Notes: generated by a model from the sequence alone, not told the origin. A stretch of DNA of 58,329 nucleotides from a virus (IMGVR_UViG_3300027833_000059:1-58329), one strand, 5' to 3'; shown: positions 34,911-56,982, counted from the stretch's first letter. Program-made: numbers and translations.

Positions 34911-35046
34911 AATATCTTGTTTTAGTTATTGTTCTCTACAAAGATACAACTAATTTCTGGATTAACAATGGAATAATGTAAAAACTTTTTATAAAAATAA
35001 TTCATATTTTATTTGGTAGATATGAAGAAATGTTGTATCTTTACAC

Positions 35047-35109
35047 TGTAGGTGCGAAAGTGATACGGGTCTGGATAGAGATATTCGAAAGAGTAGACTC
35101 CAACCTACA
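35047..35109 (+). ncRNA. Structured small RNA, copy 1 of 4
   Basis: TTTG(35012)...TATCTTTA(35036) promoter; UGUAGGU/ACCUACA closing stem with inner stems conserved across the copies. Confidence 0.75.
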
Positions 35110-35166
35110 ACAAAGTCAAATAATTTACACTAAAAAATAAGGTACTAAATTAGTACCTTATCAATC

Positions 35167-35337
35167 TTAAACTCTATAGCTAATATGTTCTTCTAATGGT
35201 TCATACTCTACCTCAGTGTACGAATAACAATTAATTTTTTCATCCTTTAATAGAATCTCACTAACTTCACTAATTGTCTTATCAGACTCAACTAATATTA
35301 ATTGTTTACATTCAGTTAAAATTTCAAATACTTTCAT
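35167..35337 (-). CDS. Cassette gene, 56 aa (not in track)
   Basis: MKVFEILTECKQLILVESDK...; promoter TATATTTG at 35366. Confidence 0.65.
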   Translation of the reverse strand: MKVFEILTECKQLILVESDKTISEVSEILLKDEKINCYSYTEVEYEPLEEHISYRV

Positions 35338-35423
35338 ATGTTTTTGTTTTAATTATTCTACCTTACAAATATACTAAAAATAAATTAACCTACCTAATTT
35401 TAGATAGGTTAATTTTAAATTAT

Positions 35424-36224
35424 TTATATGTTAATTATGAAGTCGTTAGTTTCAACATTTTCTTTATTAACACCCTTGGTTCCTTTACCCGTCATAAGCT
35501 TATATTTAAGTCCTACAATAACGTTTTGTTCATCTAAGAAACGTAAGTCTGTTTCATCTCCATTGATAACCTTAAAACCTTTGTATTCACTTGGTAATTC
35601 ACTTCGTTTACTCATTGCAAATACCATTGAAACGTTATAACCTTTATTTAACATTTCAAACGACGTTTTATCATTGTCTTCTGCTCTACTAAACGTCAAA
35701 TGATAATTACTAGGTAACTTTTTTCTTAATCTACTATCAATTTTAGTATAATCATAAAATTGTATACCTGGAAATAGTTCGAATATATTCTTATTATCTT
35801 TATCTTTGTATCTAATGTTCTCAAATGGAACATCACTAGTACCATTTAAACGAATAGCAAACTTTTTATATCTTAATACCTTACCATTTAAAGATAGTTG
35901 CTCTAAACCTTTAATTTTAGTATGAGTATTAACTATTTTAGTAATTTCATTATATAACTGTTCCATAAAACCTACCATATTATCTAAAAAATATTCAGTT
36001 TTATTTATTTTACCTTGTTGTACGTTATCAAAACGAGCCGCACCGCTATTGAATAGACAAGCCTTAGCACAACCTTTACTTGCCTTAGCACAAAGGTTAA
36101 CACCCTTAGAGTTTTGCTTATGTGGTGCTAAATACATAATGTAAGTAGTGTAACCTACTTTTTCACCCTTAATAGTTTTTGCATTGTTAGTACTTAATAA
36201 ATTCTTAGGAATTGTGTAGTTCAT
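35424..36224 (-). CDS. Cassette gene, GP88-family (radical-SAM-like Cys cluster) protein
   Basis: NLC.KAS.GC.KACL, IRLNGTSD, FYDYTK, NYHLTFS, GDETDLRFLD, IVGLKYK. Confidence 0.75.
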   Translation of the reverse strand: MNYTIPKNLLSTNNAKTIKGEKVGYTTYIMYLAPHKQNSKGVNLCAKASKGCAKACLFNSGAARFDNVQQGKINKTEYFLDNMVGFMEQLYNEITKIVNTHTKIKGLEQLSLNGKVLRYKKFAIRLNGTSDVPFENIRYKDKDNKNIFELFPGIQFYDYTKIDSRLRKKLPSNYHLTFSRAEDNDKTSFEMLNKGYNVSMVFAMSKRSELPSEYKGFKVINGDETDLRFLDEQNVIVGLKYKLMTGKGTKGVNKENVETNDFIINI

Positions 36225-36428
36225 AATATAAGGTTTTAATTGTTCGACAAGTCAAAGATACAACCATTTATTGGATATACAAAACTTTTTATTAATTATT
36301 TTCTTATTTATAATGATTCTAAGTGTTGACAATAAGGCACCATGACAAATTTACGAAAAATAAATGAGAATACAAAATAAAAACAAAAAAAGATGAGACC
36401 TTAAACTCATCTTTTTTCTGAACAAAAC

Positions 36429-37232
36429 TTAAACGAACAACTTAACTTTTTCTTTAATCTCTTCTACTGTATATTTATCAGTATTATATTTTTTATTTAA
36501 TCCTTTAACTCTTCTTTCAGCATTCTTTTTATTAGCATATTGTAAATAAGGTCTACTACTATACCTATAACCATTTCGTGTTCTCTTAACAAAATAATCA
36601 TAATCAACCTTTATTGTGTAATACTTATCTACTTCAATTAAATTCTTTACTTTTGGTACTCTTGGAAAGTATCTTTTTCTAATCCATTTTGGACTATCTT
36701 TTAACATACCTCTAAATTCTATTGTAGGATATACATTAGTATCTTTAAATATCTCGTTACATTCAGCTACATACCTTAATAACTCTTCTTTATTTGTAAC
36801 TCTTTCACTTACATAATTACTAACAATAGTTCTATTATATGTATTAGTTACTACAATACTTACTCCAACTTCATTTAACTGCTCAATAGTTAAGGCTTTT
36901 TTAATACCAGTTTTAAATATACCCTTAAACATACCAAAAGTTGTATTATGTGTTCCCTTACCTCCAATAGCTATTGCACTAAAAAAACCAAAAGACTTAT
37001 CATTATACTCAGTATAACGTTTTTTATAACTATCTCTTATATTATCAGCGTAAGATAATAATTCATTTTCACTATATAATATTTGAGTAGTATCTCCAAC
37101 ACTTAATTTTGACCAATCTCTTACTCTTGCACCACTGTACTCGAATAAGTTACTTGACCCTATTATTACCATTGGTATAAACTTGTCTTCTACTTTAATA
37201 AATTGTTTATCGTAAATTAAATCGTAACTCAT
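36429..37232 (-). CDS. Cassette gene, hypothetical
   Basis: 267 aa; own promoter and terminator. Confidence 0.8.
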   Translation of the reverse strand: MSYDLIYDKQFIKVEDKFIPMVIIGSSNLFEYSGARVRDWSKLSVGDTTQILYSENELLSYADNIRDSYKKRYTEYNDKSFGFFSAIAIGGKGTHNTTFGMFKGIFKTGIKKALTIEQLNEVGVSIVVTNTYNRTIVSNYVSERVTNKEELLRYVAECNEIFKDTNVYPTIEFRGMLKDSPKWIRKRYFPRVPKVKNLIEVDKYYTIKVDYDYFVKRTRNGYRYSSRPYLQYANKKNAERRVKGLNKKYNTDKYTVEEIKEKVKLFV

Positions 37233-37446
37233 AATAAAAGGTTTTAGTTATTGTTCTCTACAAAGATACAACCAATTTCTGGATTAACAATGGGAATTCT
37301 TAATTATTTTCTTATTTATAATGATTCTAAACGTTAACACTAAGGCACCATGACAAATTTACAACAAATAAATGAGAATACAAAATAAAATGGACCCTTT
37401 TTTTATATTAGGACCCATTTTCAACTTAACCACAAGTTATATTTTA

Positions 37447-37725
37447 TTAATGGTAGCTAAAACCAACTTCTGTTATATAAAATTTACCACCATTATCCCT
37501 CAAGTAATAAAGGTCTAAATCGAATTTTACTAATTCATTCTCAACTGATGTTATCAATTGGTCATCTAAGTTAGGTAACTCATCTTTAACACACTCTTCT
37601 CTCTCATAGTCAGAAACTTTAACCTTACAACCGAATAGTTGTGATAGTTTTGTATTTAGGTCATGAGTAGTAAATCTACTACCTACTAATGATTCTGTTT
37701 TATTTGTGATGTCTTGATTTGTCAT
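37447..37725 (-). CDS. Cassette gene, hypothetical
   Basis: Own promoter. Confidence 0.75.
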   Translation of the reverse strand: MTNQDITNKTESLVGSRFTTHDLNTKLSQLFGCKVKVSDYEREECVKDELPNLDDQLITSVENELVKFDLDLYYLRDNGGKFYITEVGFSYH

Positions 37726-37779
37726 AGTGTTTTGTTTTAATCAAAGATACAACTAATTATTGGTTCTACAATACAATTT

Positions 37780-38103
37780 TTAATTTATTTTTTCACTAAT
37801 AACATCATCATAACCCATATCTACATATTTTCTAGCTAAAACATCTGCTTTATCTTTAGGTAAGTGAAAGTCATTAACCTCAACACCACCAACCCATACA
37901 GTATAAAGGTCAATTAGTTCCAAAGTATTTCGATTAATACTACATAATCTACCACTTTGCTCTTGTATTATAGGTTCTCCAGCTATACTTCTATTTAATA
38001 GAATACCAGTAACTTTTATATCATTGGTCATACCACAAGTTCCCATTGCAGTACATACTTTACCTACCATTTTTTCTAACTCTTGTTGTGATATGAATTT
38101 CAT
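37780..38103 (-). CDS. Cassette gene, hypothetical
   Basis: C-terminal YTVWVGGVEVND...GYDDV module. Confidence 0.75.
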   Translation of the reverse strand: MKFISQQELEKMVGKVCTAMGTCGMTNDIKVTGILLNRSIAGEPIIQEQSGRLCSINRNTLELIDLYTVWVGGVEVNDFHLPKDKADVLARKYVDMGYDDVISEKIN

Positions 38104-38122
38104 TTGTCTTGTGGTTTATGTT

Positions 38123-38701
38123 CTATACAAAGATACAAAAAAAATTTGGATTAATAAAACTTTTTTGACTATTTAATAGTTTAAATATTTCATTATATAT
38201 CTCTTCTCCCAATTGAGTCTTAGTAAAGTCAGCCATACTACCATGTAAATTTTCTTTATAACCTAACTCCTTATGCATATGCTCATCTATTTTTGGCATA
38301 TCGATTATTAATTCACCATTACATAAGCATACCCAATCAAAAAATAGTAATGGGTTTTTAGTCTTAAAACCATCTTGGAGTACCTTTTGTGATTCTCTAG
38401 TTAAATTAGACTTAATAGCCGCAGTGTGTATATTTTCTTTCCAATAGATAGCATTATTTGTAATTAGATATTCCATACAAATCTCTCTACCATACTTTAA
38501 ACTTGTCTCCCTTATATCTTGGAATACATCTTTAGTTGTAGGTATTTCTATTTCTACAATATCATAAGCTAGGGTTTTTTTATAACCCTCACCCTTAATG
38601 AAATATCTTAACGTATCATTAATTCCAAATACCTCTTGTGGGAATTTTAATGGTAAGAATAATTTTCTACTTCTGACGTAATAAGCTTGAATCTTTTGCA
38701 T
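38123..38701 (-). CDS. Cassette gene, hypothetical
   Basis: 3' end runs through the next promoter. Confidence 0.75.
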   Translation of the reverse strand: MQKIQAYYVRSRKLFLPLKFPQEVFGINDTLRYFIKGEGYKKTLAYDIVEIEIPTTKDVFQDIRETSLKYGREICMEYLITNNAIYWKENIHTAAIKSNLTRESQKVLQDGFKTKNPLLFFDWVCLCNGELIIDMPKIDEHMHKELGYKENLHGSMADFTKTQLGEEIYNEIFKLLNSQKSFINPNFFCIFV

Positions 38702-38822
38702 TGTCTTGTGGTTTATGTTCCTTACAAAGATACAACATTATTTTGATTCTACCAAATATATTTAAATAAAAAAAGGTGGGACCTTAAACCCACCTCTTTT
38801 CTGAACAAAAACAAACCTATTA

Positions 38823-39011
38823 TTATTCTTTAATCTCAAAACCTAATTCTTTTAACTTTTCAGTTAATACTTCTTCTATAACATTTTCAGTCGTAACCTC
38901 ATCTTCATCATCAGTATCGGTACAATCTTTAATTACCCCTTCAAGTACTAACTTATTAGTTATTTCGTATTTTATCTCATTGATAAAATCTTTACTTATT
39001 GTATTTTCCAT
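38823..39011 (-). CDS. Hypothetical acidic protein
   Basis: Leader present, promoter missing. Confidence 0.7.
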   Translation of the reverse strand: MENTISKDFINEIKYEITNKLVLEGVIKDCTDTDDEDEVTTENVIEEVLTEKLKELGFEIKE

Positions 39012-39036
39012 TTGTCTTGTGGTTTATGTTCCTTAT

Positions 39037-39387
39037 CTATTTTACCAAATTGTGTTCTCCATCGAACACTACACCATTCTTACCTCGATATACAACTAAA
39101 TCTCCACCCGCATACATCCAAGGATTTTCATTTTCACTACCATTTTTTTTGATATAATCAATATCAGCAGTAGTGGTGTACTCTAAACTATTTCCATCCT
39201 CTTGTTCAATACCAATTAAAACCTTAACGATACTATCACTTATTTCTAATTCAGCACCAACCCATAAAGGTTTTTTCTTTTCTTTTTCAACTTCTTTATA
39301 ATCCCAAGACTTACTATCTAAATAAGCCTTTAATTCTGCTAATTCTTCTCTTGAACAATTATGTGTATTTATTTCAATATTTTTCAT
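39037..39387 (-). CDS. Cassette gene, hypothetical
   Basis: Own promoter and leader. Confidence 0.75.
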   Translation of the reverse strand: MKNIEINTHNCSREELAELKAYLDSKSWDYKEVEKEKKKPLWVGAELEISDSIVKVLIGIEQEDGNSLEYTTTADIDYIKKNGSENENPWMYAGGDLVVYRGKNGVVFDGEHNLVK

Positions 39388-39430
39388 TTGTCTTGTGGTT
39401 TATGTTCCTTACAAAGATACAACTAATTAT

Positions 39431-39634
39431 TTAATCTACCAAATCTTTTTCCAATGAATTGAAAATTTCATAACATTTTTCATTAATTTCATCATCGGTC
39501 ATTGTTCTATTATTATTCCAAATATAAAAACACTTACTTTCTAACCTTGAACAAAACTTAATATACTTACCATTATTAGTGGTAATTAAGGATATTTGAT
39601 GTTCCAAGAAAAATTTAAAATTAGTTGAATACAT
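39431..39634 (-). CDS. Hypothetical protein
   Basis: Third gene of the cassette. Confidence 0.65.
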   Translation of the reverse strand: MYSTNFKFFLEHQISLITTNNGKYIKFCSRLESKCFYIWNNNRTMTDDEINEKCYEIFNSLEKDLVD

Positions 39635-39635
39635 A

Positions 39636-39815
39636 TTATTTAGCTCTTGTGATTACTTTATTATTTATACGTGTACTTTCCCCTAGTTCTAAACTCATAA
39701 GTTGCTTTAATGAAGTTTCAGAAGAGTATCTTAACCCATGTGATGTCCATAAAGATGTACTACCACTCCTAGTGAAAAACTTATCCTTTAATTGATTATG
39801 ATAAAAGTCTGACAT
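39636..39815 (-). CDS. Hypothetical 59 aa protein (not in track)
   Basis: MSDFYHNQLKDKFFTRSGSTSLWTS...; 1-nt spacing on both sides. Confidence 0.65.
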   Translation of the reverse strand: MSDFYHNQLKDKFFTRSGSTSLWTSHGLRYSSETSLKQLMSLELGESTRINNKVITRAK

Positions 39816-39816
39816 A

Positions 39817-39936
39817 TTATTTTCTTTTACGTTTTAGTTTCCTTTTTAATCTTCTTTTTTCACGACCACACATAATTGGTTCTTGCTCTTTAATTCTTAC
39901 ATCTTTATATGGGTCTGTTATTTTGTAACTTTTCAT
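39817..39936 (-). CDS. Cassette gene, 39 aa basic peptide (not in track)
   Basis: MKSYKITDPYKD...GREKRRLKRKLKRKRK. Confidence 0.65.
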   Translation of the reverse strand: MKSYKITDPYKDVRIKEQEPIMCGREKRRLKRKLKRKRK

Positions 39937-40010
39937 TTGTCTTGTGGTTTATGTTCCTTACAAAGATAATAAAAATTCCCTTACCAACCTAATGATAAGG
40001 GAAATATTTT

Positions 40011-40139
40011 TTAATGTCCACCAGTAAATGTTATTTCAATTCCACCATTCTTTTCTTCGGCTACAAAAGTAACACCACTCTTGATAAATCCTAATAACAT
40101 GTCGTTGAAAGTTTCTGTTGATACGAATAAAGTTTGCAT
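40011..40139 (-). CDS. Cassette gene, 42 aa (not in track)
   Basis: MQTLFVSTETFNDMLLGFIKSGVTF...IEITFTGGH. Confidence 0.7.
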   Translation of the reverse strand: MQTLFVSTETFNDMLLGFIKSGVTFVAEEKNGGIEITFTGGH

Positions 40140-40264
40140 AATAAGTTGTTTTAGTTATTGTTCTCTACAAAGATACAACTAATTATTGGTTCTACCTAAT
40201 AAAATGCAATAAAAAAAGGTGGGACCTTAAACCCACCTCTTCTCTGAACAAAAACAAACCTAAT

Positions 40265-40471
40265 CTAAATCTTAATTTCTTTATTTTCCAATTCGTCTAA
40301 CTTGACGATTGAATATACGTATAATGCAGTACCAATACCAACAAATAACCACATTAAATAAGATAGTACATCTACCTTTAATATCATTTCACTTTCAAAG
40401 ATGATGAAATAAAAACCTACAAAGGTTAAAATCATTCCTACTATCATAGTTGTAAAATACTTATCTTTCAT
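40265..40471 (-). CDS. Cassette gene, two-TM membrane protein
   Basis: Two hydrophobic segments. Confidence 0.7.
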   Translation of the reverse strand: MKDKYFTTMIVGMILTFVGFYFIIFESEMILKVDVLSYLMWLFVGIGTALYVYSIVKLDELENKEIKI

Positions 40472-40535
40472 AATATTAAGTTTTAATTGTTTGACACTTC
40501 AAAGATACAACCTTTTTTTAGTTCTACCAAATAAT

Positions 40536-40757
40536 TTATAATAAACTTTCTATTGGTTTAATCTCAATATGCATTCTATCTTCATCACCTCTAATCATAA
40601 TTGTATTAGACGTTACCAATGATACATCACAATTCCATTCCTCATTTAAACGAAATCTACTTAAATTATTATTAACCCAAATTGCAATCTTACTATTTTC
40701 AATCTCTTCATTAAAAAAGAAATGAGCCTTACTTCCGTTAATTATTAATTGTTTCAT
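40536..40757 (-). CDS. Cassette gene, hypothetical
   Basis: Own promoter and leader. Confidence 0.75.
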   Translation of the reverse strand: MKQLIINGSKAHFFFNEEIENSKIAIWVNNNLSRFRLNEEWNCDVSLVTSNTIMIRGDEDRMHIEIKPIESLL

Positions 40758-40834
40758 TTGTCTTGTGGTTTATGTTCCTTACAAAGATACAAAATAAAAA
40801 CCTTACCACCAAACAATAGTAAGGTTTTTTTTAA

Positions 40835-41116
40835 TTAATCTACTAATTTTATTTCGTAAGGTATATTTAAATCAGAAACTTCATAATCGTGTAATTCAGT
40901 CTGCATATCAAATTCAACTGTATAATACATTTTAATTGCATTTAAGTTACACCCATCGAAAATTTCATTTACTGTAATGCTACCAACACCTGTTTTAAAT
41001 AGTTGTTCTATTATAGACTTAGCCACACTATTTGCATTTTCCTCAATCTCTTGGTCTTGTCCGTGGTTAAAATACCACTCTAAAAATCTTTCTTTTGTAA
41101 TTGTTAACTTTAACAT
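40835..41116 (-). CDS. Cassette gene, hypothetical
   Basis: Own promoter and leader. Confidence 0.75.
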   Translation of the reverse strand: MLKLTITKERFLEWYFNHGQDQEIEENANSVAKSIIEQLFKTGVGSITVNEIFDGCNLNAIKMYYTVEFDMQTELHDYEVSDLNIPYEIKLVD

Positions 41117-41191
41117 AATCTTGTTGTTTTATTTGTTCTCTACAAAGATAATAAAAAATCCCTTACCAACCAAATGATAAGGGAATTATTT

Positions 41192-41434
41192 TTAATAAAC
41201 TGATTCAATCTGAATGCCATCCTCAGTATATAAGTCTTGTGACTCCCAATTAACTGAATAAGATAACTCTCCAGGCTCATATGAGTCGATTAGAGCGACC
41301 ATCTCATCGTCGTCATCACTTACTTCAAATACTTGTGTTCCATCGCATAAGAACTCACCATTTCGATACGGGTGGTTTATTGCAATCTTAAGGTCTTCTA
41401 AAGAATTGATAGTTGTATTCATATTTGCGTACAT
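41192..41434 (-). CDS. Cassette gene, hypothetical acidic protein
   Basis: Own promoter and leader. Confidence 0.75.
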   Translation of the reverse strand: MYANMNTTINSLEDLKIAINHPYRNGEFLCDGTQVFEVSDDDDEMVALIDSYEPGELSYSVNWESQDLYTEDGIQIESVY

Positions 41435-41480
41435 AATAAAAGAGTTTTAAAGTTCGACACTTCAAAGATACAACCTTTTT

Positions 41481-41672
41481 TTAGTTATCACAAGTTTTAT
41501 TTAAAATATCTTTAATATTTAATGGTAATACATCCTTTAATTCTGGCTTAACAAACTCAACTAATGCATCTTTAGGATGATAACTTAATATATCATTAAC
41601 TTGGTTATCTATTGTGGGTGAACTATCATTTAATAGATATCTCTTACCCTCTACCTTAAGAATAGTTAACAT
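41481..41672 (-). CDS. Hypothetical protein
   Basis: Overlaps the upstream gene. Confidence 0.6.
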   Translation of the reverse strand: MLTILKVEGKRYLLNDSSPTIDNQVNDILSYHPKDALVEFVKPELKDVLPLNIKDILNKTCDN

Positions 41673-41856
41673 CTACTTCATGTCTATGGATTAATAAAAC
41701 TTCTTTTGAAGAATCACAAATAACTGCTTGAAAATTCTCACACTTTATGTGTTCACATATAATATATGTACCAGTCACATTTCCACTAGAAACCAATTCA
41801 TCTTCTTCATTACAATGAGTAAAAATTTCTGCATTTTCTAATTCAATAGTTTTCAT
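41656..41856 (-). CDS. Cassette gene, hypothetical
   Basis: Start moved to ATG 41856, after a TATCTTTA promoter. Confidence 0.7.
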   Translation of the reverse strand: MKTIELENAEIFTHCNEEDELVSSGNVTGTYIICEHIKCENFQAVICDSSKEVLLIHRHEVDVNYS

Positions 41857-41884
41857 AATAACTTTTTTATGTAAAGATACAATA

Positions 41885-42355
41885 TTAAATTGACTCTGCC
41901 AAATCATTCTCTAAAAATGTTATAATAATATCATGGTCTCTATCTTCTCCTAATATTAAATCAATATCAATTTTCTCTACATCTCCATAAGTTTCCCACT
42001 TCTCCATTCTTTCATAACTCTCTTCCTCTTCATCAGTAGAAATATTTGCCATAAAACCTAAATCACATAACCATCTTTGAGATAATTCAAATACCATTAT
42101 TTGATATAATGTATTTTTTACATCATCATTATCTGAATCGTAAAAATGCTCATAGCAATCTTCTGCACTATCAACTTCAATAGCCTCAACAAACAGCCTA
42201 CCATCGTTTGTAAGAGCGTAAGACACATGGTCTTGGTGTTTGGTTACCGCATGATATAAAGCATTGTTAGGGTCGCTATAAATACCTAAGTTGGTTCTTG
42301 ATGAATGTTCTCCCCATGGGTTAGTTGAATATAATTGATATACAAAGTTTTCCAT
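41885..42355 (-). CDS. Cassette gene, hypothetical acidic protein
   Basis: Own promoter and leader. Confidence 0.75.
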   Translation of the reverse strand: MENFVYQLYSTNPWGEHSSRTNLGIYSDPNNALYHAVTKHQDHVSYALTNDGRLFVEAIEVDSAEDCYEHFYDSDNDDVKNTLYQIMVFELSQRWLCDLGFMANISTDEEEESYERMEKWETYGDVEKIDIDLILGEDRDHDIIITFLENDLAESI

Positions 42356-42431
42356 TGTCTTGTGGTTTTAATTATTATACTTCAAAGATACAAAAAATTC
42401 CCTTACCAACCAAATGATAAGGGATTTTTTT

Positions 42432-42659
42432 TTACAACCATATCATATCGTATTCCCTATCACCAAAACCATTGTTATCTAACCAATTTTGAATTTGAAC
42501 ATTAGTATAATCATCATTTCTAGCTTCAATATCAAACCATATCTTTGGTATATCGTTTACTATCTCATAAACTTGTATGGTTTTCCATCCAGTACATTCT
42601 TCAATTGTATCAATGGTTTGTGTTTGTTTTTCTACTGTGTAATAAAGTTTAGTACTCAT
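42432..42659 (-). CDS. Hypothetical protein
   Basis: Truncated leader, no promoter. Confidence 0.75.
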   Translation of the reverse strand: MSTKLYYTVEKQTQTIDTIEECTGWKTIQVYEIVNDIPKIWFDIEARNDDYTNVQIQNWLDNNGFGDREYDMIWL

Positions 42660-42671
42660 TGTCTTGTGGTT

Positions 42672-42857: not shown

Positions 42858-42894
42858 ACTTCAAAGATACAACTAATTATTGAATCTACCAAAT

Positions 42895-43254: not shown

Positions 43255-43380
43255 AATATTTTGTTTTAATTTTTGTTCTCTTCAAAGATACAACTAATTA
43301 TTGGTTCTACCAAATAAAAACAAAAAAAAGAGTTAGGTCTGCAAACCTAACTCAATCACACATTTAGACAAAACAAAAAC

Positions 43381-48541: not shown

Positions 48542-49240
48542 TTAATTAATTTTATCCTCAATAGTATCTAAATACGTTATTGTATTATTCACTATTATAT
48601 ATGGTCGCCTATCCATTTCATCATCATACCATATAGTAGCAGTACCTATTTCACGACTATAAAAGTTAACATTTAATTTATGGTTAACCATATCAACTTC
48701 ATTATACCATAAACCTTTCTCTAATTTGCAAGATATATTATATAAACCATTCACAGAAATCATAGAATCGTTATAAACATAACAAGTTTCTCCATCAATA
48801 AACTTTACATAATTTCCACTTTCATCATTACATACTGAATATTCAGTTGATAACATTTCACCAGTATTTTCATCACCATAAGCTTCATCATCAGCTAATA
48901 ATAACTTACCACTAACACTACATTTACATATAGATTCATAATCATGTAAATCATCATTACTTAAATCATCTACCTCTAAAGCTACGCAAATCTCCTTATA
49001 TCTCTCAATGAATAACTTTAAATCATCAAAAGCCATTACACTAATACTAACACTTAAGTCTTTTTTTCTTATATCCCAGGAAAATGTACCAAACTCTCTC
49101 TCGAATTGGTTTTTCATATATTGGATACTTATTTTATTAATGTTTGGAAACGCATTAATAACATCTTCTACGAATACACATAGTATGTTATCTACATCGT
49201 AAAAGGTTCTCATCATTGGGTACTTAAAATTCTGTTCCAT
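48542..49240 (-). CDS. Cassette gene, hypothetical
   Basis: 232 aa; own promoter. Confidence 0.75.
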   Translation of the reverse strand: MEQNFKYPMMRTFYDVDNILCVFVEDVINAFPNINKISIQYMKNQFEREFGTFSWDIRKKDLSVSISVMAFDDLKLFIERYKEICVALEVDDLSNDDLHDYESICKCSVSGKLLLADDEAYGDENTGEMLSTEYSVCNDESGNYVKFIDGETCYVYNDSMISVNGLYNISCKLEKGLWYNEVDMVNHKLNVNFYSREIGTATIWYDDEMDRRPYIIVNNTITYLDTIEDKIN

Positions 49241-49336
49241 ATCTATATTAATTATTGTTCAATACAAATATACAAAATAAAAACTAACCCACCAAATAAA
49301 TGATGAGTTAATTTTATATTAGAACAAATTTACCAC

Positions 49337-49651
49337 TTACATATTAGTTAACTCTTTATATGTAATACTAGTAATTAATTTATAAAACTCTGGTAACTTA
49401 AAGAATACAAGTACACCATTAACAATAATACTACAATGAGCATCAGACCCATATTGACCTACCCTATTTAACTTATTAAGCCTAGATACACCTTCATTAG
49501 CTAATTGAATAAAAAAGTTATTAGACTTAACCCTAGCCTTCATCCCGTCAGCTTGTACCTCAATAGTATAATCCCCACCAAAAGCATCGCCTTCATTCAT
49601 CCTTCTATGCTTATATGCTTTAATGTTTTCAAATGTTATTGTATTTCCCAT
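49337..49651 (-). CDS. Cassette gene, hypothetical
   Basis: Own promoter and leader. Confidence 0.75.
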   Translation of the reverse strand: MGNTITFENIKAYKHRRMNEGDAFGGDYTIEVQADGMKARVKSNNFFIQLANEGVSRLNKLNRVGQYGSDAHCSIIVNGVLVFFKLPEFYKLITSITYKELTNM

Positions 49652-49708
49652 GTCTCATTGTTTTTATTGTTCCTTACAAAGATACAAAAAATAATCCTTA
49701 CTACCAAA

Positions 49709-50026
49709 TTATAGCAAGGTTTTTTTATCATTATTAGTGAGTTTTACACCTCTGTATCTTTCTATGATTCTCATGGCTTGTTCAAAGTCCCCATTTAAAA
49801 CCTCTTGACACATATGGTCAATGGCTATCGCATCACAATATACAGTTTCATATGATAATGTTTCATCATTATATGCTTTATATGTTGGTGTTTCTGCATC
49901 GGAATGAGAACCATTATACACATCTTCTACATCAAACCAATCAACTTCCTTATCAAATGGTATATTCTTAACTCCCCTAGCAACTAACTCTAACCAATCT
50001 TGTATCTCTTGTCTTACACTTTTCAT
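49709..50026 (-). CDS. Cassette gene, hypothetical
   Basis: Own promoter and leader. Confidence 0.75.
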   Translation of the reverse strand: MKSVRQEIQDWLELVARGVKNIPFDKEVDWFDVEDVYNGSHSDAETPTYKAYNDETLSYETVYCDAIAIDHMCQEVLNGDFEQAMRIIERYRGVKLTNNDKKTLL

Positions 50027-50114
50027 AATCTTGTGGTTTTAATTATTGTTCCTTACAAAGATACAATAAATAATCCTTACTACCTAATATAATAAGGATT
50101 ATTTTATAATTTAT

Positions 50115-50375
50115 TTAAAACATTTCATATCTCTCTAAGATAACTCTCCCTTTGTATTTCCCCTCTTCTCCGACGTAATCTACAAACTTAAGTAGTGTAT
50201 CATCATTTCTAACGTAAGCATCTTGAGATACCACATCTTTGGCTCTGTTAATCTCTAAGATTTGATTAAGTTCAAACTCAGCTGACTTCTTACTTGAAAA
50301 GTGTCTTGGTGTAAACGCATACTGATTTGTGAAACCATTTAAACTACCACTCTTAACTACATAAACATATCTCAT
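50115..50375 (-). CDS. Cassette gene, hypothetical
   Basis: Own promoter and leader. Confidence 0.75.
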   Translation of the reverse strand: MRYVYVVKSGSLNGFTNQYAFTPRHFSSKKSAEFELNQILEINRAKDVVSQDAYVRNDDTLLKFVDYVGEEGKYKGRVILERYEMF

Positions 50376-50464
50376 AACTATAAGGTTTTAAAATTAGACT
50401 TACACAAAGATAAACAAAATAAACCTTACTACCAAATATAATAAGGTTTATTTATAAATTTATT

Positions 50465-51010
50465 TTATGCGTCTTTATAAAGTCTCCAAGTTAATGATTC
50501 AATATCTAAGGTATCACAAGCAATTTCAATATTACTCATATGAGTCTTAATTTTACGTTCCCATGTATCTTGGTGCTTATTTGCCATTAACAATAAGACC
50601 TCATTAACTTCATCCATTATTAATTTAAATCTTCTATTAAAAGAATCCCCATTAAAATCAACATAAGATACAAAAGGCATACCAACTTTGTTACATAATT
50701 GTTTTAACATTTGTTCTGACATACCAACTTCATCTAATATATGTTCCATATATTCTCCATCAACCTCAATATCTTTTAATATATTAATGACTTTTCTAAC
50801 CTTTGTCCCATAGTCTGAACTAATTATTTCATGTAAGCCAACTGAATGTACATTTAAATCCTTATCTACTACCTTAACATACTTAGTTGGTGTATCATTG
50901 TTAGGTGTAGTTTCCTCAAAAAACTCTACAATAATAACCTCATCATTAGAAGTTAAATTTAAATCTGCCAATGCATCTCCCTTTAATTTTACTCTATCGT
51001 ATTTTTTCAT
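50465..51010 (-). CDS. Cassette gene, hypothetical
   Basis: Own promoter and leader. Confidence 0.75.
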   Translation of the reverse strand: MKKYDRVKLKGDALADLNLTSNDEVIIVEFFEETTPNNDTPTKYVKVVDKDLNVHSVGLHEIISSDYGTKVRKVINILKDIEVDGEYMEHILDEVGMSEQMLKQLCNKVGMPFVSYVDFNGDSFNRRFKLIMDEVNEVLLLMANKHQDTWERKIKTHMSNIEIACDTLDIESLTWRLYKDA

Positions 51011-51091
51011 CTTACCTGTGGTTTATGTTCCCTACAAAGATACAACAAATAATCCTTACTACCAAATATAATAAGGATTATTTTTAATTTA

Positions 51092-51697
51092 TTATACTTG
51101 TGCTAACATTCTATTATAAAACTTTTCTTTAGACGTGTATAAAAAACAATTTCTAATCTTTTCTCCACGATACGTTGAATGAATTGTACTATGTTCATCA
51201 ACTTTTATTACCTCAAGTCTTTTTTGTTGAACCATATAATTTCTAAAGATATAACGTTCTCCATATTTAATTTCTTTTTTAGGTTGAGTTCTACTAATGA
51301 AATCTTCACGATTTTTGTAAATTGTATATCCCAACATTGAACCACTATTACCAATCACATAAGAATAAGATGTCCAACCAACACCTATTGTAAATTTTAT
51401 TTTATCAATTTTACCTCGTTTTAATATAAAATTCTTATATGGGTTATCATTATGATATAAAACATCTTTTCCAATGTTATACTTATTATCTAAAATCTTG
51501 GTAATATCGTTACTAACAAACTTTTTCTTAATATCTTCTAAGTTATTACTACGCGAATAATCGTTTATCCCAAACCTAAGTCTTTCAATTGTTCCATCAG
51601 CTAACAGAGTACCCTCAATAGAAGTTATCGAACCTTGAGTTCTGTTATACTTTAACATTATTCTATCTCCTATATTGAATGGTAATGTAATTTTCAT
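51092..51697 (-). CDS. Cassette gene with repeated SH3/KOW-like beta modules
   Basis: FNIGDRI, YNIGKDV, IKYGERY repeats. Confidence 0.7.
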   Translation of the reverse strand: MKITLPFNIGDRIMLKYNRTQGSITSIEGTLLADGTIERLRFGINDYSRSNNLEDIKKKFVSNDITKILDNKYNIGKDVLYHNDNPYKNFILKRGKIDKIKFTIGVGWTSYSYVIGNSGSMLGYTIYKNREDFISRTQPKKEIKYGERYIFRNYMVQQKRLEVIKVDEHSTIHSTYRGEKIRNCFLYTSKEKFYNRMLAQV

Positions 51698-51812
51698 AAT
51701 CTTGTGGTTTTAATTATTGTTCCTTACAAAGATACAACTAATTATTGGTTCTACCAAATATTTTAATAGAAAAAGGGTACCACTTTGAGATGGGTACCCT
51801 TTTCAGCTCAAG

Positions 51813-52337
51813 CTATATTAATCTATTCTCTCCCTCAATCCAACGTCTGAATGCTATAATAACATCTCCATCAGACCAATTATCTTTATCAGCACATTCT
51901 AAAATGTCCTCAAAACAATATTGTACAATATCTGCTATATTGTTTGGTATATCCATACCAAGATAAGTTATTTTTTGTATGAGTATTTTTTTAACCTCAT
52001 CTTTTTTATTAAAATTTTCAAATTCCTCCCACTCTTCATCTTGAACATCAATATAGAACACCTTATAAGTGTCAAAACCATGTAACGAAACACTTTCTAA
52101 TCCGTTAACAAAAGAATTAAATTCTTCTTTAGTTTGGAACGTGTGGGATTCTAATGAATCATATATGTTATCTCGATTATCTGAAGAACCATCTTGTAAG
52201 TCATCTAATAATTCAGAAACTTTATTTAACTTATAAACGTTATTTTTAACAATATACTTTGTCCAAGAGATTTTACTCTTAAAAGATTCAATCGCTCCGT
52301 AATCATTTCCTTTAGTGTCAATAATAATATATATCAT
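51813..52337 (-). CDS. Cassette gene; C-terminal domain shared with 44493-44981
   Basis: Start moved to ATG 52337. Confidence 0.8.
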   Translation of the reverse strand: MIYIIIDTKGNDYGAIESFKSKISWTKYIVKNNVYKLNKVSELLDDLQDGSSDNRDNIYDSLESHTFQTKEEFNSFVNGLESVSLHGFDTYKVFYIDVQDEEWEEFENFNKKDEVKKILIQKITYLGMDIPNNIADIVQYCFEDILECADKDNWSDGDVIIAFRRWIEGENRLI

Positions 52338-52421
52338 AATATCTTGTGGTTTAATAATTAATATTTCAAAGATAATAAAAATAATCCTTACTACCAAATA
52401 TAATAAGGATTATTTTATATA

Positions 52422-52664
52422 TTACCATTCTACAATAATATATTCTGTACCATGACTATTGAAACCAAAAGTTATTTTATAACCCTTTTCTCGCAATAAA
52501 CGTATTGCCAAATCTTTTTCTTGAGGGCTACAAGTAACACCACTACAGTAGTGGGTAATTCTACCACTCTTACTTTTAATAATTTTATCACATACCCTAT
52601 GATAAAATTCTCTTGATACTTCTATCTTACTCTTTGCGTGTTCTTTAGCTGATGGCATCTCCAT
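52422..52664 (-). CDS. Cassette gene, hypothetical
   Basis: Own promoter and leader. Confidence 0.75.
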   Translation of the reverse strand: MEMPSAKEHAKSKIEVSREFYHRVCDKIIKSKSGRITHYCSGVTCSPQEKDLAIRLLREKGYKITFGFNSHGTEYIIVEW

Positions 52665-52754
52665 AATATTATTGTTTTAATTGTTCTACACTTCAAAGAT
52701 ACAAAAAATAAACCTTACTACCTAACATAATAAGGTTTATTTTATAATACTGTT

Positions 52755-52991
52755 TTATTTAATCTCAATTAATTCATCAAATTTACTATAATACTCACTA
52801 ACTAAATCTTCATTACATAAATTACTAAAACCACTTATACCACCATCACGAATAATAGTATCTATGTAACTATAATCCCCACCTAATATCATTTGCTCAA
52901 TTGTATCAATCTCATCAGAAACTAATCTATCTATAACTTCTTGTCTTGTTAAATCTTCCATATCTAACACTTTTTTAATTATCCTACTCAC
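52755..52991 (-). CDS. Hypothetical protein
   Basis: Second gene of the cassette. Confidence 0.65.
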   Translation of the reverse strand: MSRIIKKVLDMEDLTRQEVIDRLVSDEIDTIEQMILGGDYSYIDTIIRDGGISGFSNLCNEDLVSEYYSKFDELIEIK

Positions 52992-53160
52992 TTACTATTA
53001 ATCTTACTTCTCCATCCAATTCGTAACCACTCTGACCTTTACTTGATACTTCAATATTATTAACCCAAAGGTTTACTTCATCATCCCCAATTGGAACTCT
53101 AACATTTACACTCTTATCTTCAATTTTTTGAAGAGCATCTATTAAATCTTGTACACTCAT
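52984..53160 (-). CDS. Cassette gene, hypothetical
   Basis: Start moved to ATG 53160 (MSVQDLIDALQ). Confidence 0.7.
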   Translation of the reverse strand: MSVQDLIDALQKIEDKSVNVRVPIGDDEVNLWVNNIEVSSKGQSGYELDGEVRLIVSE

Positions 53161-53247
53161 AATATATTGTTTTAATTGTTCTACATTACAAAGATACAAA
53201 AAATAATCCTTACTACCTAACATAATAAGGATTATTTTATATATTTC

Positions 53248-53481
53248 CTACTCACCAGAACAACCTAAACATAAATCAGTATCATCATCATAACTAATAA
53301 TCTCACCAGAACTAAAACCACCACCACAATTATTACACATATAACCATCATCCAAACTTTCACACTCTTCAATCAAATCACACCTATCAACTAATAAGGC
53401 TTGGTCTATATCTTCATATACTGAATTATCTACCAAATAATCTGCTAACTCAAACTTATTCCAACTACTAAAATCTTTCAT
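53248..53481 (-). CDS. Acidic zinc-finger protein
   Basis: CNNCGG...CLGC. Confidence 0.7.
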   Translation of the reverse strand: MKDFSSWNKFELADYLVDNSVYEDIDQALLVDRCDLIEECESLDDGYMCNNCGGGFSSGEIISYDDDTDLCLGCSGE

Positions 53482-53494
53482 ATATAATACTTTT

Positions 53495-53803
53495 TTAATT
53501 ATCTAACCAACCTAATAAATTAACTGCCTCACCATACTCCAATTCCGAAAGTGAACCACTTATAATTTCACCATTACAACCCTCAGTTATACCAATAGCA
53601 ATATAATCACCACCCTTAATACTCATAACAGCATACTCGTCATAATGAAAATGCTTACACACCTTACTTACTCTTGGTACTTCATTCCTAACCTCAGAAT
53701 CAAAATCGTCAAATTCATCTTGTGTTAAAATAACCTCATCATAACTATTTAAAGCTTGATAAACTGAATCCATTAAATTGTGTACTTCTTTTGTTAAACT
53801 CAT
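53495..53803 (-). CDS. Cassette gene, hypothetical acidic protein
   Basis: Own promoter. Confidence 0.75.
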   Translation of the reverse strand: MSLTKEVHNLMDSVYQALNSYDEVILTQDEFDDFDSEVRNEVPRVSKVCKHFHYDEYAVMSIKGGDYIAIGITEGCNGEIISGSLSELEYGEAVNLLGWLDN

Positions 53804-53934
53804 AATATATCGTTTTAATTATTATACTTCAAAGATACAACATAAGAAAAGTTCCCACAACTACTTATAGTATGCAAAACAACTTTTTTAATTATCCAAA
53901 TTATTTATGTTAAAATTTTTAACCACGCATTTTA

Positions 53935-54132
53935 TTATAATCCATAATTATATACAAGAAAATCAAATATTTTCTCATCATCCCCAAATAGATTAGATTC
54001 AGGTAAATAATATTGCTTACCTCCATACTCGATACATTTATGGTCATCCATCATTAATTCAACATAATCACAGGATTCATTTTTTCTTACTTTTGTTCCT
54101 CTCTCTGTTAAAAATTCTTTAATTGTCTTCAT
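53935..54132 (-). CDS. Cassette gene, hypothetical
   Basis: Own promoter and leader. Confidence 0.7.
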   Translation of the reverse strand: MKTIKEFLTERGTKVRKNESCDYVELMMDDHKCIEYGGKQYYLPESNLFGDDEKIFDFLVYNYGL

Positions 54133-54277
54133 AATAAATTATTTAATTGTTCTACATTACAAAGATAATTAAACTTATTTAATAATCGTGCAGACTATAA
54201 GTAACACCAGTAAAAATATATTTTAAAATAATTTATATTTTATTTGGTAGAACCAATATAATGTCGTACCTTTACAC

Positions 54278-54340
54278 TGTAGGTACGAAAGTGATACGGG
54301 TCTGGAAATAACACTCCGAAAGAGTAGACTCCAACCTACA
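54278..54340 (+). ncRNA. Structured small RNA, copy 2 of 4
   Basis: TTTG...TACCTTTA promoter; same scaffold; followed by a U-run. Confidence 0.75.
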
Positions 54341-54426
54341 CCTATTTTTTTTACATACAAAACAAAAAAAAGAGCTAGGTAAAAACCTAACTCAATTTTG
54401 AACACAAACAAAACAACTATTATATT

Positions 54427-54997
54427 TTAAAACTCAATATTAATTTTTCTACTCTCAATGTTTTCAACTAAAACACTTTGCAAATAATCAACATCTGTTG
54501 GATTACCAACAAAATCAACATATCCTACCAAACTTTTTCTTAATCTCTTCTAAGATAACATTCCTATCTCCCTCTTTTAAATCTCCCAATAAATCTAATA
54601 TCATATCATTAGCATTTGAAACATTTAAATCCCTTAAACCACTATCATCACTATCAGCATATGACCAACCTTTAAGCCTATCCTCTAATTCCTTAGAACA
54701 TTCAGCCATAAAATACAAATCAAAACAAGTAGTATCAGTCGCTTCATCCCAACCTATCTCTTCAAAACCATTAGTCTTAACCAATGTCCTAAGATATAAT
54801 GAATTGTCAGAAAACATAATATTATCAACAATTTCAGTTATTAAACCATAAGCACCCACAGAACCATTTTGGTCTAACCAACCACCATACTTAAATCTAA
54901 TTATACTATAACTTTCACTTGTTACGGCTGAAATGATAAAGTCCTTATCCTCTCTTGCTTTTACCCTTAACGTTGTTTTTAATTGTTCTAATCTCAT
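54427..54997 (-). CDS. Cassette gene with an apparent +1 frameshift near 54530
   Basis: Frame stops at 54515, but the +1 frame continues VGYVDFVGNPTDVDYLQSVLVENIESRKINIEF to 54427. Confidence 0.6.
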
Positions 54998-55060
54998 CTT
55001 ACTTGTGGTTTTAATTATTGTTCTTAGCAAAGATAATACAAATTATTGAATCTACCAAAT

Positions 55061-55279
55061 TTATTTAAGTAATTCTGAAATATTATATATATCATCTACT
55101 TCCCATGATATATTATCATGCTCACATGTTATCGTCTTTAATTGATAATTTCTACCACCCCTAATAGCATCAGCAGTTAATAAAATAAACGCTTGTATAC
55201 CACCATTACAATTAACAGTTAGTGTATGTTCATATCCACGAACATCCCTAAATAAACCTATGTATGTATTTGTTCTCAT
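55061..55279 (-). CDS. Cassette gene, hypothetical
   Basis: Own promoter and leader. Confidence 0.75.
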   Translation of the reverse strand: MRTNTYIGLFRDVRGYEHTLTVNCNGGIQAFILLTADAIRGGRNYQLKTITCEHDNISWEVDDIYNISELLK

Positions 55280-55332
55280 CTTACTTGTGGTTTTAATTAT
55301 TGTTCCTTACAAAGATACAACATAATATTGGA

Positions 55333-55662
55333 TTAAACTAATTTTTTCTCTAAAAATTCATTAATTTCATCAAAAAATTCTCCATCCCATTGTCTACCCT
55401 CATTCATTAATTGAAACTCATTCGTAAGTTCCTCAGCTAATTCATATAAACCACCAGTACCTTGACTCTCATACCTATCCAATACCAAAGGCGACTCACA
55501 CTTATCTTGTCTCCAATAATATGTTATCTGAGACACAACCTCAAAATAAGTCTCAACCCAACCATTAAAACATATTTCAGTCGGTAAAGAATTATCACTG
55601 TTCTTTAATGCAAATTCTAAATTCTTAATTTGCTCATTACTACCTTGGAATAATATTTTCAT
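55333..55662 (-). CDS. Cassette gene, hypothetical
   Basis: Own promoter and leader. Confidence 0.75.
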   Translation of the reverse strand: MKILFQGSNEQIKNLEFALKNSDNSLPTEICFNGWVETYFEVVSQITYYWRQDKCESPLVLDRYESQGTGGLYELAEELTNEFQLMNEGRQWDGEFFDEINEFLEKKLV

Positions 55663-55758
55663 CTTACTTGTGGTTTTAATTATTATTATACTTCAAAGAT
55701 ACAAAAAATAATCCTTACTACCTAATATAATAAGGATTATTTTATAAAATTGTCTACA

Positions 55759-55995
55759 TTAAAAGTAAACTTCGTAACCCTCTACTTTCATTTGAATAAT
55801 ACATCGCTTGACATAGTTTATAGCCTCTTCTGTAACTATATAACCTCTAACACCTTCCTCAAGTTGGTAAGTAATTACGAAATCCTCATCAACTCCCTTA
55901 CCTACTTTATTACCCTCAACTTTAGAATAAAATTCTAATCTACCTTTAATATTTTCTATTGCTCTTGGTGCGAAATAATCTATTGGATAAGACAT
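55759..55995 (-). CDS. Cassette gene, hypothetical
   Basis: Own promoter and leader. Confidence 0.75.
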   Translation of the reverse strand: MSYPIDYFAPRAIENIKGRLEFYSKVEGNKVGKGVDEDFVITYQLEEGVRGYIVTEEAINYVKRCIIQMKVEGYEVYF

Positions 55996-56130
55996 AATTT
56001 GTGGTTTTTATTGTTCCTTACAAAGATACAACAAATAATCCTTACTACCAAATAATATACAATAAAAAAATAAATTAAAAATAATCCATTTATTCCATTG
56101 TAGAACCAATAATTATTCGTATCTTTACAC

Positions 56131-56195
56131 TGTAGGTGCTTAATAGCGATACGGGTCTGGAACTAACACTCCGAAAGAGTAGACTCCAACCTACA
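56131..56195 (+). ncRNA. Structured small RNA, copy 3 of 4
   Basis: TATCTTTA promoter at 56120; same scaffold with a variant first hairpin. Confidence 0.75.
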
Positions 56196-56314
56196 ACAAA
56201 TCCAGATTAAAATCTCAAACCAAAGCACCAACACAAAGATACAAAAAAGTTTTTAATAAAAAAAATAAATAAGACCCTAATTTTAATTAAAGCCTTATTT
56301 ATTTTATCTAATCC

Positions 56315-56779
56315 CTACCCTAATACAAATTGCTTTGCCTTAGCATAAACACCTAACTCTTCCCTAACTTTTGAATCTTTCCTAAAATACTCGTCATAAT
56401 ATCTAACCTTATTAAAATAATTAATATCATACACACCTAATTCACTCATCTTCTCACATACTTCATAACTTAAGAAAAATTGTATGGACTCAACCCTCTG
56501 TAATGGACTTGAACTTAACATACTACCATAAATGTCATCACTGAATAATGTACAACCATTATCATCAACTAATAACCTACCTACACTATAATCTAAACCA
56601 TAATTCATCTTAGGGTCTCTATCTACCTTAAAATACCTTACATCAACATAACCTAAACCATTCTTAATAATCCTACTACTACCATCCATAGTACCAAAAT
56701 GCTCGTATACACCCGATAATAACTCCTTAGCTAATTCAACACTAATCTCATTCGCTACTAATTCCTTTACTAATTTCAT
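56315..56779 (-). CDS. Cassette gene, hypothetical
   Basis: Own promoter at 56803. Confidence 0.75.
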   Translation of the reverse strand: MKLVKELVANEISVELAKELLSGVYEHFGTMDGSSRIIKNGLGYVDVRYFKVDRDPKMNYGLDYSVGRLLVDDNGCTLFSDDIYGSMLSSSPLQRVESIQFFLSYEVCEKMSELGVYDINYFNKVRYYDEYFRKDSKVREELGVYAKAKQFVLG

Positions 56780-56914
56780 AATATATGTGGTTTTTGTTCT
56801 CTACAAAGATACAACTAATTATTGGATAAACAATAACTTTTATACAAAAAAAAAATAATTTAATTTTTCTCACATATTATTTGGTATATCCAATATAATG
56901 TTGTACCTTTACAT

Positions 56915-56982
56915 TGTAGATGCTTAACAGCGATACGGGTCTGGTACTGAAATAACACCGAAAGAGTAGACTCCAACCTACA
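56915..56982 (+). ncRNA. Structured small RNA, copy 4 of 4 (most diverged)
   Basis: TACCTTTA promoter at 56904; same scaffold with a longer loop. Confidence 0.7.

Follow-up and report, generated by a model that had tools for sequence, protein, structure and literature searches.

The viral sequence IMGVR_UViG_3300027833_000059, a 58-kb (58,329-nt) record that was analysed over its whole length and is referred to here as the window, carries on its plus strand four copies of a short structured RNA unit, the promoter and RNA parts of which can be aligned across the copies. The units belong to a sequence family that is nearly restricted to phages and shares one layout: a G-rich anchor (GGG, or GCC in one class), a hairpin designated P3, two to four nucleotides, the 11-nt core GAGUAGACUCC, two variable letters and CCUAC. 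In the reading of these sequences that we favour, each unit would be an autonomous, early, trans-acting phage small RNA, with the constant 3' module as its handle or seed; we hold this view tentatively, with somewhat less than even confidence. The family appears to be uncatalogued, as it is not in Rfam and was not found in print.

A role is known for few of the small RNAs that phages encode, and almost none of these RNAs is known to be conserved across unrelated phages. The motif described here is nearly identical in phages with almost no proteins in common, with one to eight copies per genome in the records searched, located in the early region. The conservation across phages, the multiple early copies and the near-absence from bacterial genomes together argue for a role in an important infection step in abundant marine bacteria. 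In kind, the units have their kin among stand-alone phage small RNAs and repeated promoter cassettes, and there is a real chance that their function is a new one. Even if that function should prove to be an ordinary one, e.g. transcription punctuation, the family merits a model in an RNA database. The loci are at present blank in annotations, including the GenBank record of the Tenacibaculum phage Larrie, which together with Tenacibaculum larymnensis offers a cultured pair for direct tests.

Promoters and secondary structure of the RNA units

A preliminary description of this DNA, made from the sequence alone, had reported four plus-strand copies, each behind a promoter, in an otherwise minus-strand region, and all of this was borne out. 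The 18-mer GAGTAGACTCCAACCTAC, which forms the 3' part of the unit, has four matches in the window with up to three mismatches, where 0.04 were expected from shuffled sequences (none of 100 shuffles gave four), and GATACGGGTCTGG occurs exactly four times. The element TA(T/C)CTTTA precedes every copy and ends 3 nt 5' of UGUAG. About 20 nt upstream of it lies TTTG in copies 1, 2 and 4, which is replaced by ATTG in copy 3. Both the list of open reading frames (ORFs) and the GC skew place all coding from approximately 29 kb to 58 kb on the minus strand. The linkage to a promoter extends beyond the window: the TTTG/-7-type arrangement of copy 1 is also found upstream of 88 of the 162 unique family sequences that were pooled from the listed IMG/VR and metagenome matches, sets that had been retrieved using the core as bait.

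The hairpin P3 has good support across the family. In 140 of the 162 sequences a single hairpin of at least 4 bp ends 2-4 nt 5' of the core; 101 different stems are represented, and the loops measure 3-15 nt. In an earlier set 52 of 54 members folded a hairpin at this place (mean z -2.28 versus shuffles). The segment is stabler on the motif strand in 125 sequences and on the other strand in 33 (Wilcoxon p 6e-14, a value that is indicative only since the sequences are related), and the G-U pairs in it number 211 on the motif strand versus 97 on the opposite strand. This asymmetry and the doubled number of G-U pairs fit an RNA that is read from the motif strand. Among the window copies, the stems are UGGAUA-GAGA-UAUUCG in copy 1, UGGA and UCCG around 8 nt in copies 2 and 3, and UGGU and ACCG around 11 nt in copy 4, so that copy 4 differs from copies 2 and 3 by a compensatory change from A-U to U-A. 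What had been described as an unpaired variable segment is thus for the most part the loop and stem of a covarying hairpin, and the recurrence of certain loop types (UGAAAUA 27 times, GNRA 14 times, UAACA 13 times) implies that the segment does not vary freely. When P3 was counted in fixed columns of the model alignment only 60% was paired, and RNAalifold returned no consensus structure for that alignment; both results are due to a shift of the stem register by one column between subtypes, and folding was therefore carried out per sequence.

The purine-rich linker between P3 and the core reads GAA in 96 of the 162 sequences, and the two variable letters after the core are AA (71), GT (37), GC (23), GA (17) or AC (11). 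A run of at least five U residues follows within 20 nt downstream in 63 members. In one subtype (L091, L096, L123 and L130) a repeated TGCTATACAC, which elsewhere is located 5' of the RNA, lies inside P3 and abuts CGGAA-GAGUAGACUCC.

The subtype found in the window adds two parts to this layout, a stem between a 5' strand and the CCUAC tail (P1) and a small covarying hairpin (P2). The stems were tested in 18 full-length relatives of the subtype. P2, the first hairpin of the preliminary description, was paired in 100% of the cells, with compensatory changes in two of its three pairs, which agrees with the original claim that its pairing is kept despite changes in sequence. The general order of the parts that had been proposed as a shared layout likewise stands, but its second hairpin (ACUC/AUUC-(C)GAAA-GAGU) does not: it is absent from copy 4, and in the relatives 62.5% of the cells were paired and no compensatory change was seen. 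An invariant stem GGGUCU/AGACUC likewise lacks support. It was paired in 83% of the cells, the outer pairs fail in 3-10 of the 18 relatives, and there is no covariation because one side is invariant.

For the closing stem P1 the outcome was mixed. The stem is present in the window copies, as described, but it belongs to this subtype only, with 81% of the cells paired, no compensatory change and a 3' strand that never varies. Strong pairing of leader and tail is confined to the window copies (z -3.9, -3.2, -3.7 and -1.8); over the family, leader-tail complementarity is at the level of shuffles (mean z -0.27, n=60), and P1 is therefore special to the window's subtype. An outer helix of the GGG anchor with the tail was rejected as a family feature (mean z -0.13 over 57 members, with own tails pairing no better than those of others). 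There are striking single cases of such pairing, namely AUUCGGG/CCCGAAU in copy 3 of Larrie and GACGUG/CACGUC in locus L056. The folding energy of the whole RNA shows only a modest gain over shuffles in the window copies (z -0.9 to -2.1), so that stability alone is insufficient for the claim of a structured RNA, which is carried by the comparative data.

In line with the preliminary description, no known RNA family covers the units. Rfam 15 gave no match on the whole window at gathering thresholds (the C4 RNA, which has an Rfam model, included), and at E values up to 10 nothing overlapped the element on its strand in the surroundings of copy 1 or in one member of the second class described below. 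ARAGORN detected no tRNA or tmRNA genes in the window; the acceptor stem of tRNA has 7 bp, like P1, but P1 is no family feature. Several likenesses were considered and dropped, as neither model matches nor host genomes supported them: a strand of 5S rRNA loop E (GAGAGUAG), 16S rRNA (UAACAAGG), the 3' end of the fluoride riboswitch, the GTAG of REP/RAYT elements, anticodon loops and the Cas12a handle.

Catalytic and ligand-binding RNAs typically have a core of the kind seen here, nearly invariant, rich in purines and bordered by variable helices. The units could on this ground be small ribozymes or ligand-binding aptamers, e.g. a sponge for a signalling nucleotide, in which the core and the GGG anchor would form the active or binding site; given the Rfam result, such an RNA would not be one of the known classes. 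We consider this very improbable. The pairings of tail with anchor and with leader stay at shuffle level, leaving a tertiary fold or pseudoknot without support, the minimal form of the RNA has only about 45 nt and one helix, and no gene association indicates a ligand.

Searches of the literature by sequence strings and terms returned no description of the motif. A catalogue of 10,006 candidate structured viral RNAs lists covarying intergenic motifs from IMG/VR-type data (Fremin, Bhatt, Kyrpides 2023, PMC10690425). The motif is not described in its main text, the supplementary motif tables lying outside that comparison, and the family may be an unnamed entry among those candidates.

Distribution in phages and bacterial genomes

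The 18-mer core GAGUAGACUCC-NN-CCUAC was found in 30 IMG/VR stretches, many of which come from contigs of 100-340 kb and several of which hold more than one copy. A looser pattern, GAGTAGACTCCNNCCTAC, was found in at least 120 metagenome stretches, mostly marine or aquatic by name. A covariance model built on the core (R1) yielded 65 matches in the loci that had been fetched, among them copies in which the core or the tail is changed. In four large whole phage records, three of which are complete with terminal repeats (339, 288 and 266 kb), it yielded 5, 8, 1 and 6 matches, the copy in the single-match record being degenerate. Multiple R1 matches within one phage record cluster inside 10-27 kb.

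Among 50,697 records of cultured phages, the motif is present only in Larrie (ON950054.1), a lytic siphovirus with a genome of 77.5 kb. Its three copies are on the plus strand at 16.9, 18.8 and 19.4 kb, in unannotated gaps of 0.3-1.1 kb, and all but one of its annotated genes are on the strand opposite to the three units. A term search of Larrie's paper (PMC10013915) gave no mention of the copies. Larrie encodes its own RNA polymerase. Other searches of cultured phages were negative: a megablast of 4 kb of the window against the phage collection gave no match, and a search for the second class gave chance matches only. A collection scan with GATACGGGTCTGG...AGACTCC gave one chance match, inside a coding region.

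This second class has the tail GYCCUAC and a minimal RNA of about 45 nt. Its contigs contain 0-1.5 Bacteroidota promoters per 10 kb, versus 7-20 in eight of nine Bacteroidota-type loci (0.9 in the ninth, L009), and carry in place of these promoters a repeated TGCTATACA motif. The units adjoin genes for long tail fibres, GroEL, a sigma factor and DNA ligase. The family thus spans Bacteroidota jumbo phages, a Tenacibaculum siphovirus and large marine myoviruses with long tail-fibre genes, i.e. at least three very different types of phage.

In bacterial genomes the sequence is nearly absent. The 18-mer was found in six stretches among 185,579 species genomes, four of them in phage-like contigs of metagenome bins and two seemingly by chance, and none of the six lies in a CRISPR array. 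R1 matched none of 150 other Bacteroidota genomes. The 11-mer core was present in 58 of 401 Bacteroidia genomes, which by a reading of the table is not above the reversed-pattern control, the control columns not having been totalled. These searches thus revealed no host RNA, CRISPR repeat or conserved host target with the sequence.

The same results bear on two proposals that connect the units with RNA-guided systems. RNA anti-CRISPRs are promoter-driven, solitary repeat units that mimic host CRISPR repeats. As promoter-driven, multi-copy small phage RNAs proposed as decoys, the units resemble them, and the preliminary description had drawn this analogy; it is disfavoured by the absence of the motif from the host genomes searched, in which neither an array with the 18-mer nor, among the 150 scanned with the model, a match to R1 was found. 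The other proposal is a handle or guide RNA for an RNA-guided protein of the TnpB/Cas12f type, including the dCas12f-sigmaE of Flavobacteriia. The guide RNAs of the latter system in marine Flavobacteriia consist of a scaffold and a conserved 3' guide of 14-16 nt, the 5' seed of which is most conserved, at a total length of 85-105 nt (PMC13472631). In these RNAs and the hth-associated non-coding RNAs of the same work, one finds the same host group and the same combination of a structured part with a conserved 3' segment as in the phage units, and the constant 3' module of the units likewise shows its highest conservation in the 5' part.

Length and gene association differ, however, the host genomes searched gave no matches, and the constant and variable parts are swapped with respect to those RNAs. 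In the phage units the 3' part is constant and the hairpin variable, the reverse of a guide, and, as read from the sequences, about 29-55 nt precede the core. The constant 3' part has no further match in the window that could be a target site. The TnpB family PF07282 has no match in the window, in the large phage record G004 or in Larrie. G001 (the complete 339-kb phage record) and G002 do carry PF07282 copies, at kilobases from the RNA sites; there are eight such TnpB-like genes in G001 and two in G002. Taken together, the reading as a guide, a handle or an RNA anti-CRISPR is largely refuted, and we regard it as most improbable. The units do not resemble type III antitoxins either: the copies are dispersed, 0.7-19 kb apart, and have their own promoters (no tandem-repeat finder was run), and no toxin family was found among the neighbouring proteins.

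The distribution could also reflect a repeated regulatory cassette at the DNA level, such as a recombination point at which small early genes are shuffled, or a small mobile element. The early region that contains the units is hyperplastic and has one promoter for each small gene, and the units are multi-copy, occur in either orientation and are common to unrelated phages. In this they recall the PeSL cassettes of T4-like phages, likewise short repeated units of the early region with an early promoter and a stem-loop among many small ORFs. PeSLs are described as composite repeats of a terminator followed by a promoter that act as recombination points in hyperplastic early regions (PMC4122927). 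In the family studied here, by contrast, the order is promoter, structured RNA with an invariant 18-mer and, often, terminator, so that a terminator-then-promoter arrangement serving the flanking genes was not seen. The unit is often antisense to every neighbouring gene, and its conservation extends over phages with almost no proteins in common. Moreover, the stems covary, are strand-asymmetric and contain many G-U pairs, all of which speaks for RNA and not for duplex DNA. Copies within the same genome are old and divergent outside the core, whereas the core itself is kept across phages; this is not the pattern of recent transposition or of simple recombination repeats. TnpB-like genes, as noted, are absent from Larrie and the window and non-adjacent elsewhere. 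We consider a DNA cassette decidedly unlikely.

Gene context and proposed action of the units

The window is a virus record of 28% G+C that CheckV estimates to be 18% complete. It encodes a large terminase, a portal protein, a Clp-like ATPase and a thymidylate synthase, which identify it as a fragment of a large (jumbo) phage. Strict promoters of the form TTTG-N17-21-TAnnTTTG occur 34 times on the minus strand and 6 times on the plus strand, nearly one per small gene. Each RNA unit is back-to-back with the promoter of the gene to its left, with 136-146 nt between the start of P1 and the start codon of that gene in all four copies, and faces the 3' end of the gene to its right. We judge the host of the window phage to be Bacteroidota-like from the promoter type and the homologue in a Tenacibaculum phage, as the preliminary description had also suggested.

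The units are independent of their neighbour genes. Approximately 60% of the Bacteroidota-type units run antisense to the genes on both sides, the others being co-oriented; between a co-oriented unit and the next ORF there is usually a further promoter, and hence the unit is not the leader of the next gene. In some relatives (L009, L014, L020 and L030 among them) a repeated AATGTTAAA, which may be the binding site of a regulator, is located between the U run of the RNA unit and the next promoter.

An action in cis has to be weighed at this point, in which the unit would influence the very polymerase that transcribes it, as a signal for pausing, antitermination (nut/put/ops-like), termination or insulation, and the short RNA would be a by-product. 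The unit always stands directly after a promoter-like motif, whatever the type of promoter, as a promoter-proximal structured RNA of the nut or put kind does. The succession of a hairpin, 2-4 nt, the 11-nt conserved stretch and a U run resembles a hairpin-dependent pause or terminator, and some of the P3 loops, being GNRA or GACAA-like, recall those of boxB hairpins. However, no co-directional gene on which such a signal could act is present in the window, in Larrie or at the roughly 60% of Bacteroidota-type loci with antisense units, and the co-oriented genes downstream usually own a promoter. The hairpin is weaker on the opposite strand, where copy 3, by eye, lacks a U run, so the unit is no obvious terminator for the convergent gene. 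On balance we regard a cis-acting element as unlikely, though the second class, discussed below, speaks in its favour.

In the autonomous trans-acting RNA that we favour, a host-type early promoter (Bacteroidota sigma-A) would drive an RNA of approximately 63-75 nt, which at the window loci would be read from the strand opposite to all neighbour genes. The family module would then consist of the variable hairpin P3, 2-4 purine-rich nucleotides, the near-invariant, single-stranded GAGUAGACUCC-NN-CCUAC and often a U-rich terminator. The RNA would act in trans early in infection, and its constant 3' module could be a binding handle or a seed for a partner that is itself conserved; a component of the host is more probable in this role than a phage protein. 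The differing hairpins of the copies within one genome might provide stability or distinct specificities. It is possible, but in our opinion rather doubtful, that the units constitute a novel kind of effector RNA in phages, in which the 3' handle is constant and the hairpin exchangeable; such RNAs would be made early from several paralogous genes and would capture or redirect a conserved bacterial machine or a defence component, while the hairpins set the specificities.

Candidate partner proteins were rejected, and the genes that flank the units differ in identity as well as in orientation. DUF932, GP88 (PF17338) and SprT-like proteins recur near the units, but their order and orientation change. 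A family of proteins of 106-124 amino acids is encoded at 56 of 209 sites (e.g. L079:272-625 and L145:9813-10139; alignment A4) and is always co-oriented with the unit. It was discarded as a partner since it is confined to the GYCCUAC class and absent in five of five records of the first class. The family has the motif NFVVRKSWLGRNQVITF...YNHD...MPCWIKRGYWSQST and no Pfam match; three of four tested members have no PHROG match either, and the match of the fourth is marginal (E 0.006). Of the 114 ORFs of Larrie, seven have a match in four sequence sets, and four of these match the complete jumbo-phage record G002: two ribonucleotide reductase subunits, thymidylate synthase and a helicase. The changing flanks and the few shared proteins make a shared phage-encoded partner unlikely at this sensitivity.

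Several observations weigh against an autonomous trans-acting RNA. The U run is missing in three of the four window copies, which leaves their 3' ends undefined. Neither P1 nor the pairing of the GGG anchor is supported by covariation. The R1 matches show core variants (GGGUAGACUCC, GAGUGGACUAC and GAGUUGACUCC) and other tails, and the invariance of the core is in part an effect of ascertainment, since the core served as bait for the pooled sets. The searches yielded no partner or target. In all 14 long loci of the GYCCUAC class, the unit is co-oriented with the downstream early genes inside a gene row, and most of these loci are without a U run in the flanks inspected. In this class the element could be part of a longer mRNA, a situation that suits a role in cis equally well as a processed trans-acting RNA.

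A further point on the same side is that no site complementary to the core exists elsewhere in the window. The OOP RNA of phage lambda and the C4 RNA of P1/P7 are short RNAs with their own promoters that act through pairing with one particular phage mRNA next to them. Like the units, they have their own promoter, use the host polymerase and are sometimes convergent with a neighbour gene. Unlike the units, they are not known to be conserved across unrelated phages, and the conserved part of the units lacks, within the window, the complementary site that such an action would involve.

Coordinates and further repeated elements in the window

The promoter-like elements and the parts of the four RNA units are listed in Table 1.

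Table 1. Positions of the four RNA units and their promoter-like elements in the window
Feature	Position	Strand	Description
Copy 1, promoter	35012..35043	+	TTTG 35012-35015, 20-nt spacer, TATCTTTA 35036-35043; putative function, from consensus only
Copy 1, RNA	35047..35109	+	R1 match, 59.5 bits
Copy 1, 5' half		+	P1 5' strand 35047-35053; P2 GCGAAAGU 35054-35061; GAUAC 35062-35066; GGG 35067-35069
Copy 1, 3' half		+	P3 UGGAUA-GAGA-UAUUCG 35072-35087; AAA; core GAGUAGACUCC 35091-35101; tail AACCUAC 35102-35108
Copy 2, promoter	54243..54274	+	TTTG and TACCTTTA 54267-54274
Copy 2, RNA	54278..54340 (54278..54352 with U run)	+	R1 match, 61.4 bits
Copy 2, parts		+	P3 UGGA 54303-54306, loop AAUAACAC, UCCG 54315-54318; core 54322-54332; tail 54333-54339
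Copy 2, U8 run	54345-54352	+	Terminator-like U run, the only one among the window copies
Copy 3, promoter	56095..56127	+	ATTG-type upstream element and TATCTTTA 56120-56127
Copy 3, RNA	56131..56195	+	R1 match, 63.9 bits
Copy 3, 5' half		+	P2 GCU-UAAU-AGC 56138-56147; GAUAC 56148-56152; GGG 56153-56155
Copy 3, 3' half		+	P3 UGGA 56158-56161, loop ACUAACAC, UCCG 56170-56173; core 56177-56187; tail 56188-56194
Copy 4, promoter	56880..56911	+	TTTG and TACCTTTA 56904-56911
Copy 4, RNA	56915..56982	+	R1 match, 61.1 bits
Copy 4, 5' half		+	P1 5' strand UGUAGAU, one A/C mismatch; P2 GCU-UAAC-AGC 56922-56931; GAUAC 56932-56936; GGG 56937-56939
Copy 4, 3' half		+	P3 UGGU 56942-56945, loop ACUGAAAUAAC, ACCG 56957-56960; core 56964-56974; tail 56975-56981

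Over positions 54000-57100, the contigs of four DNA runs break at repeats; joints with short sides were seen, possibly assembly artefacts, and nothing was concluded from them.

The minus strand at 29000-56100 is an unusually dense early region that encodes mostly proteins of unknown kind, with about one promoter per small gene. No convincing gene was recognized at 56983-58080. Right after copy 4, two further promoter-like sites are present on the plus strand, TTTG...TATCTTTG at 57037-57069 and TTTG...TACCTTAG at approximately 57161-57190 (region 57037-57300); the sequence that follows each of them is hairpin-forming and has neither an ORF nor the GAGUAGACUCC core.

Two other repeated elements were noted in the window. 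The near-palindrome T(A/G)TACACAAATGTGTATA has five copies on the plus strand (28863, 31833, 57350, 57560 and 58037), where 0.03 were expected, and three of the five fall in the ORF-poor final kilobase. A site of the operator or origin type is a possible reading of this repeat. The second element, TTAGAATCATTAT(A/G)AATAA, is found on the minus strand at 36304-36322, 37312-37330 and 31345-31363, in each case about 80 nt upstream of a larger minus-strand gene (starts at 36224, 37232 and 31265, respectively). In the relatives L011, L015:3840, L017, L037, L041 and L058 it is also located 3' of the RNA unit, on the same strand. This element may be a promoter of another class, either phage-specific or middle/late.

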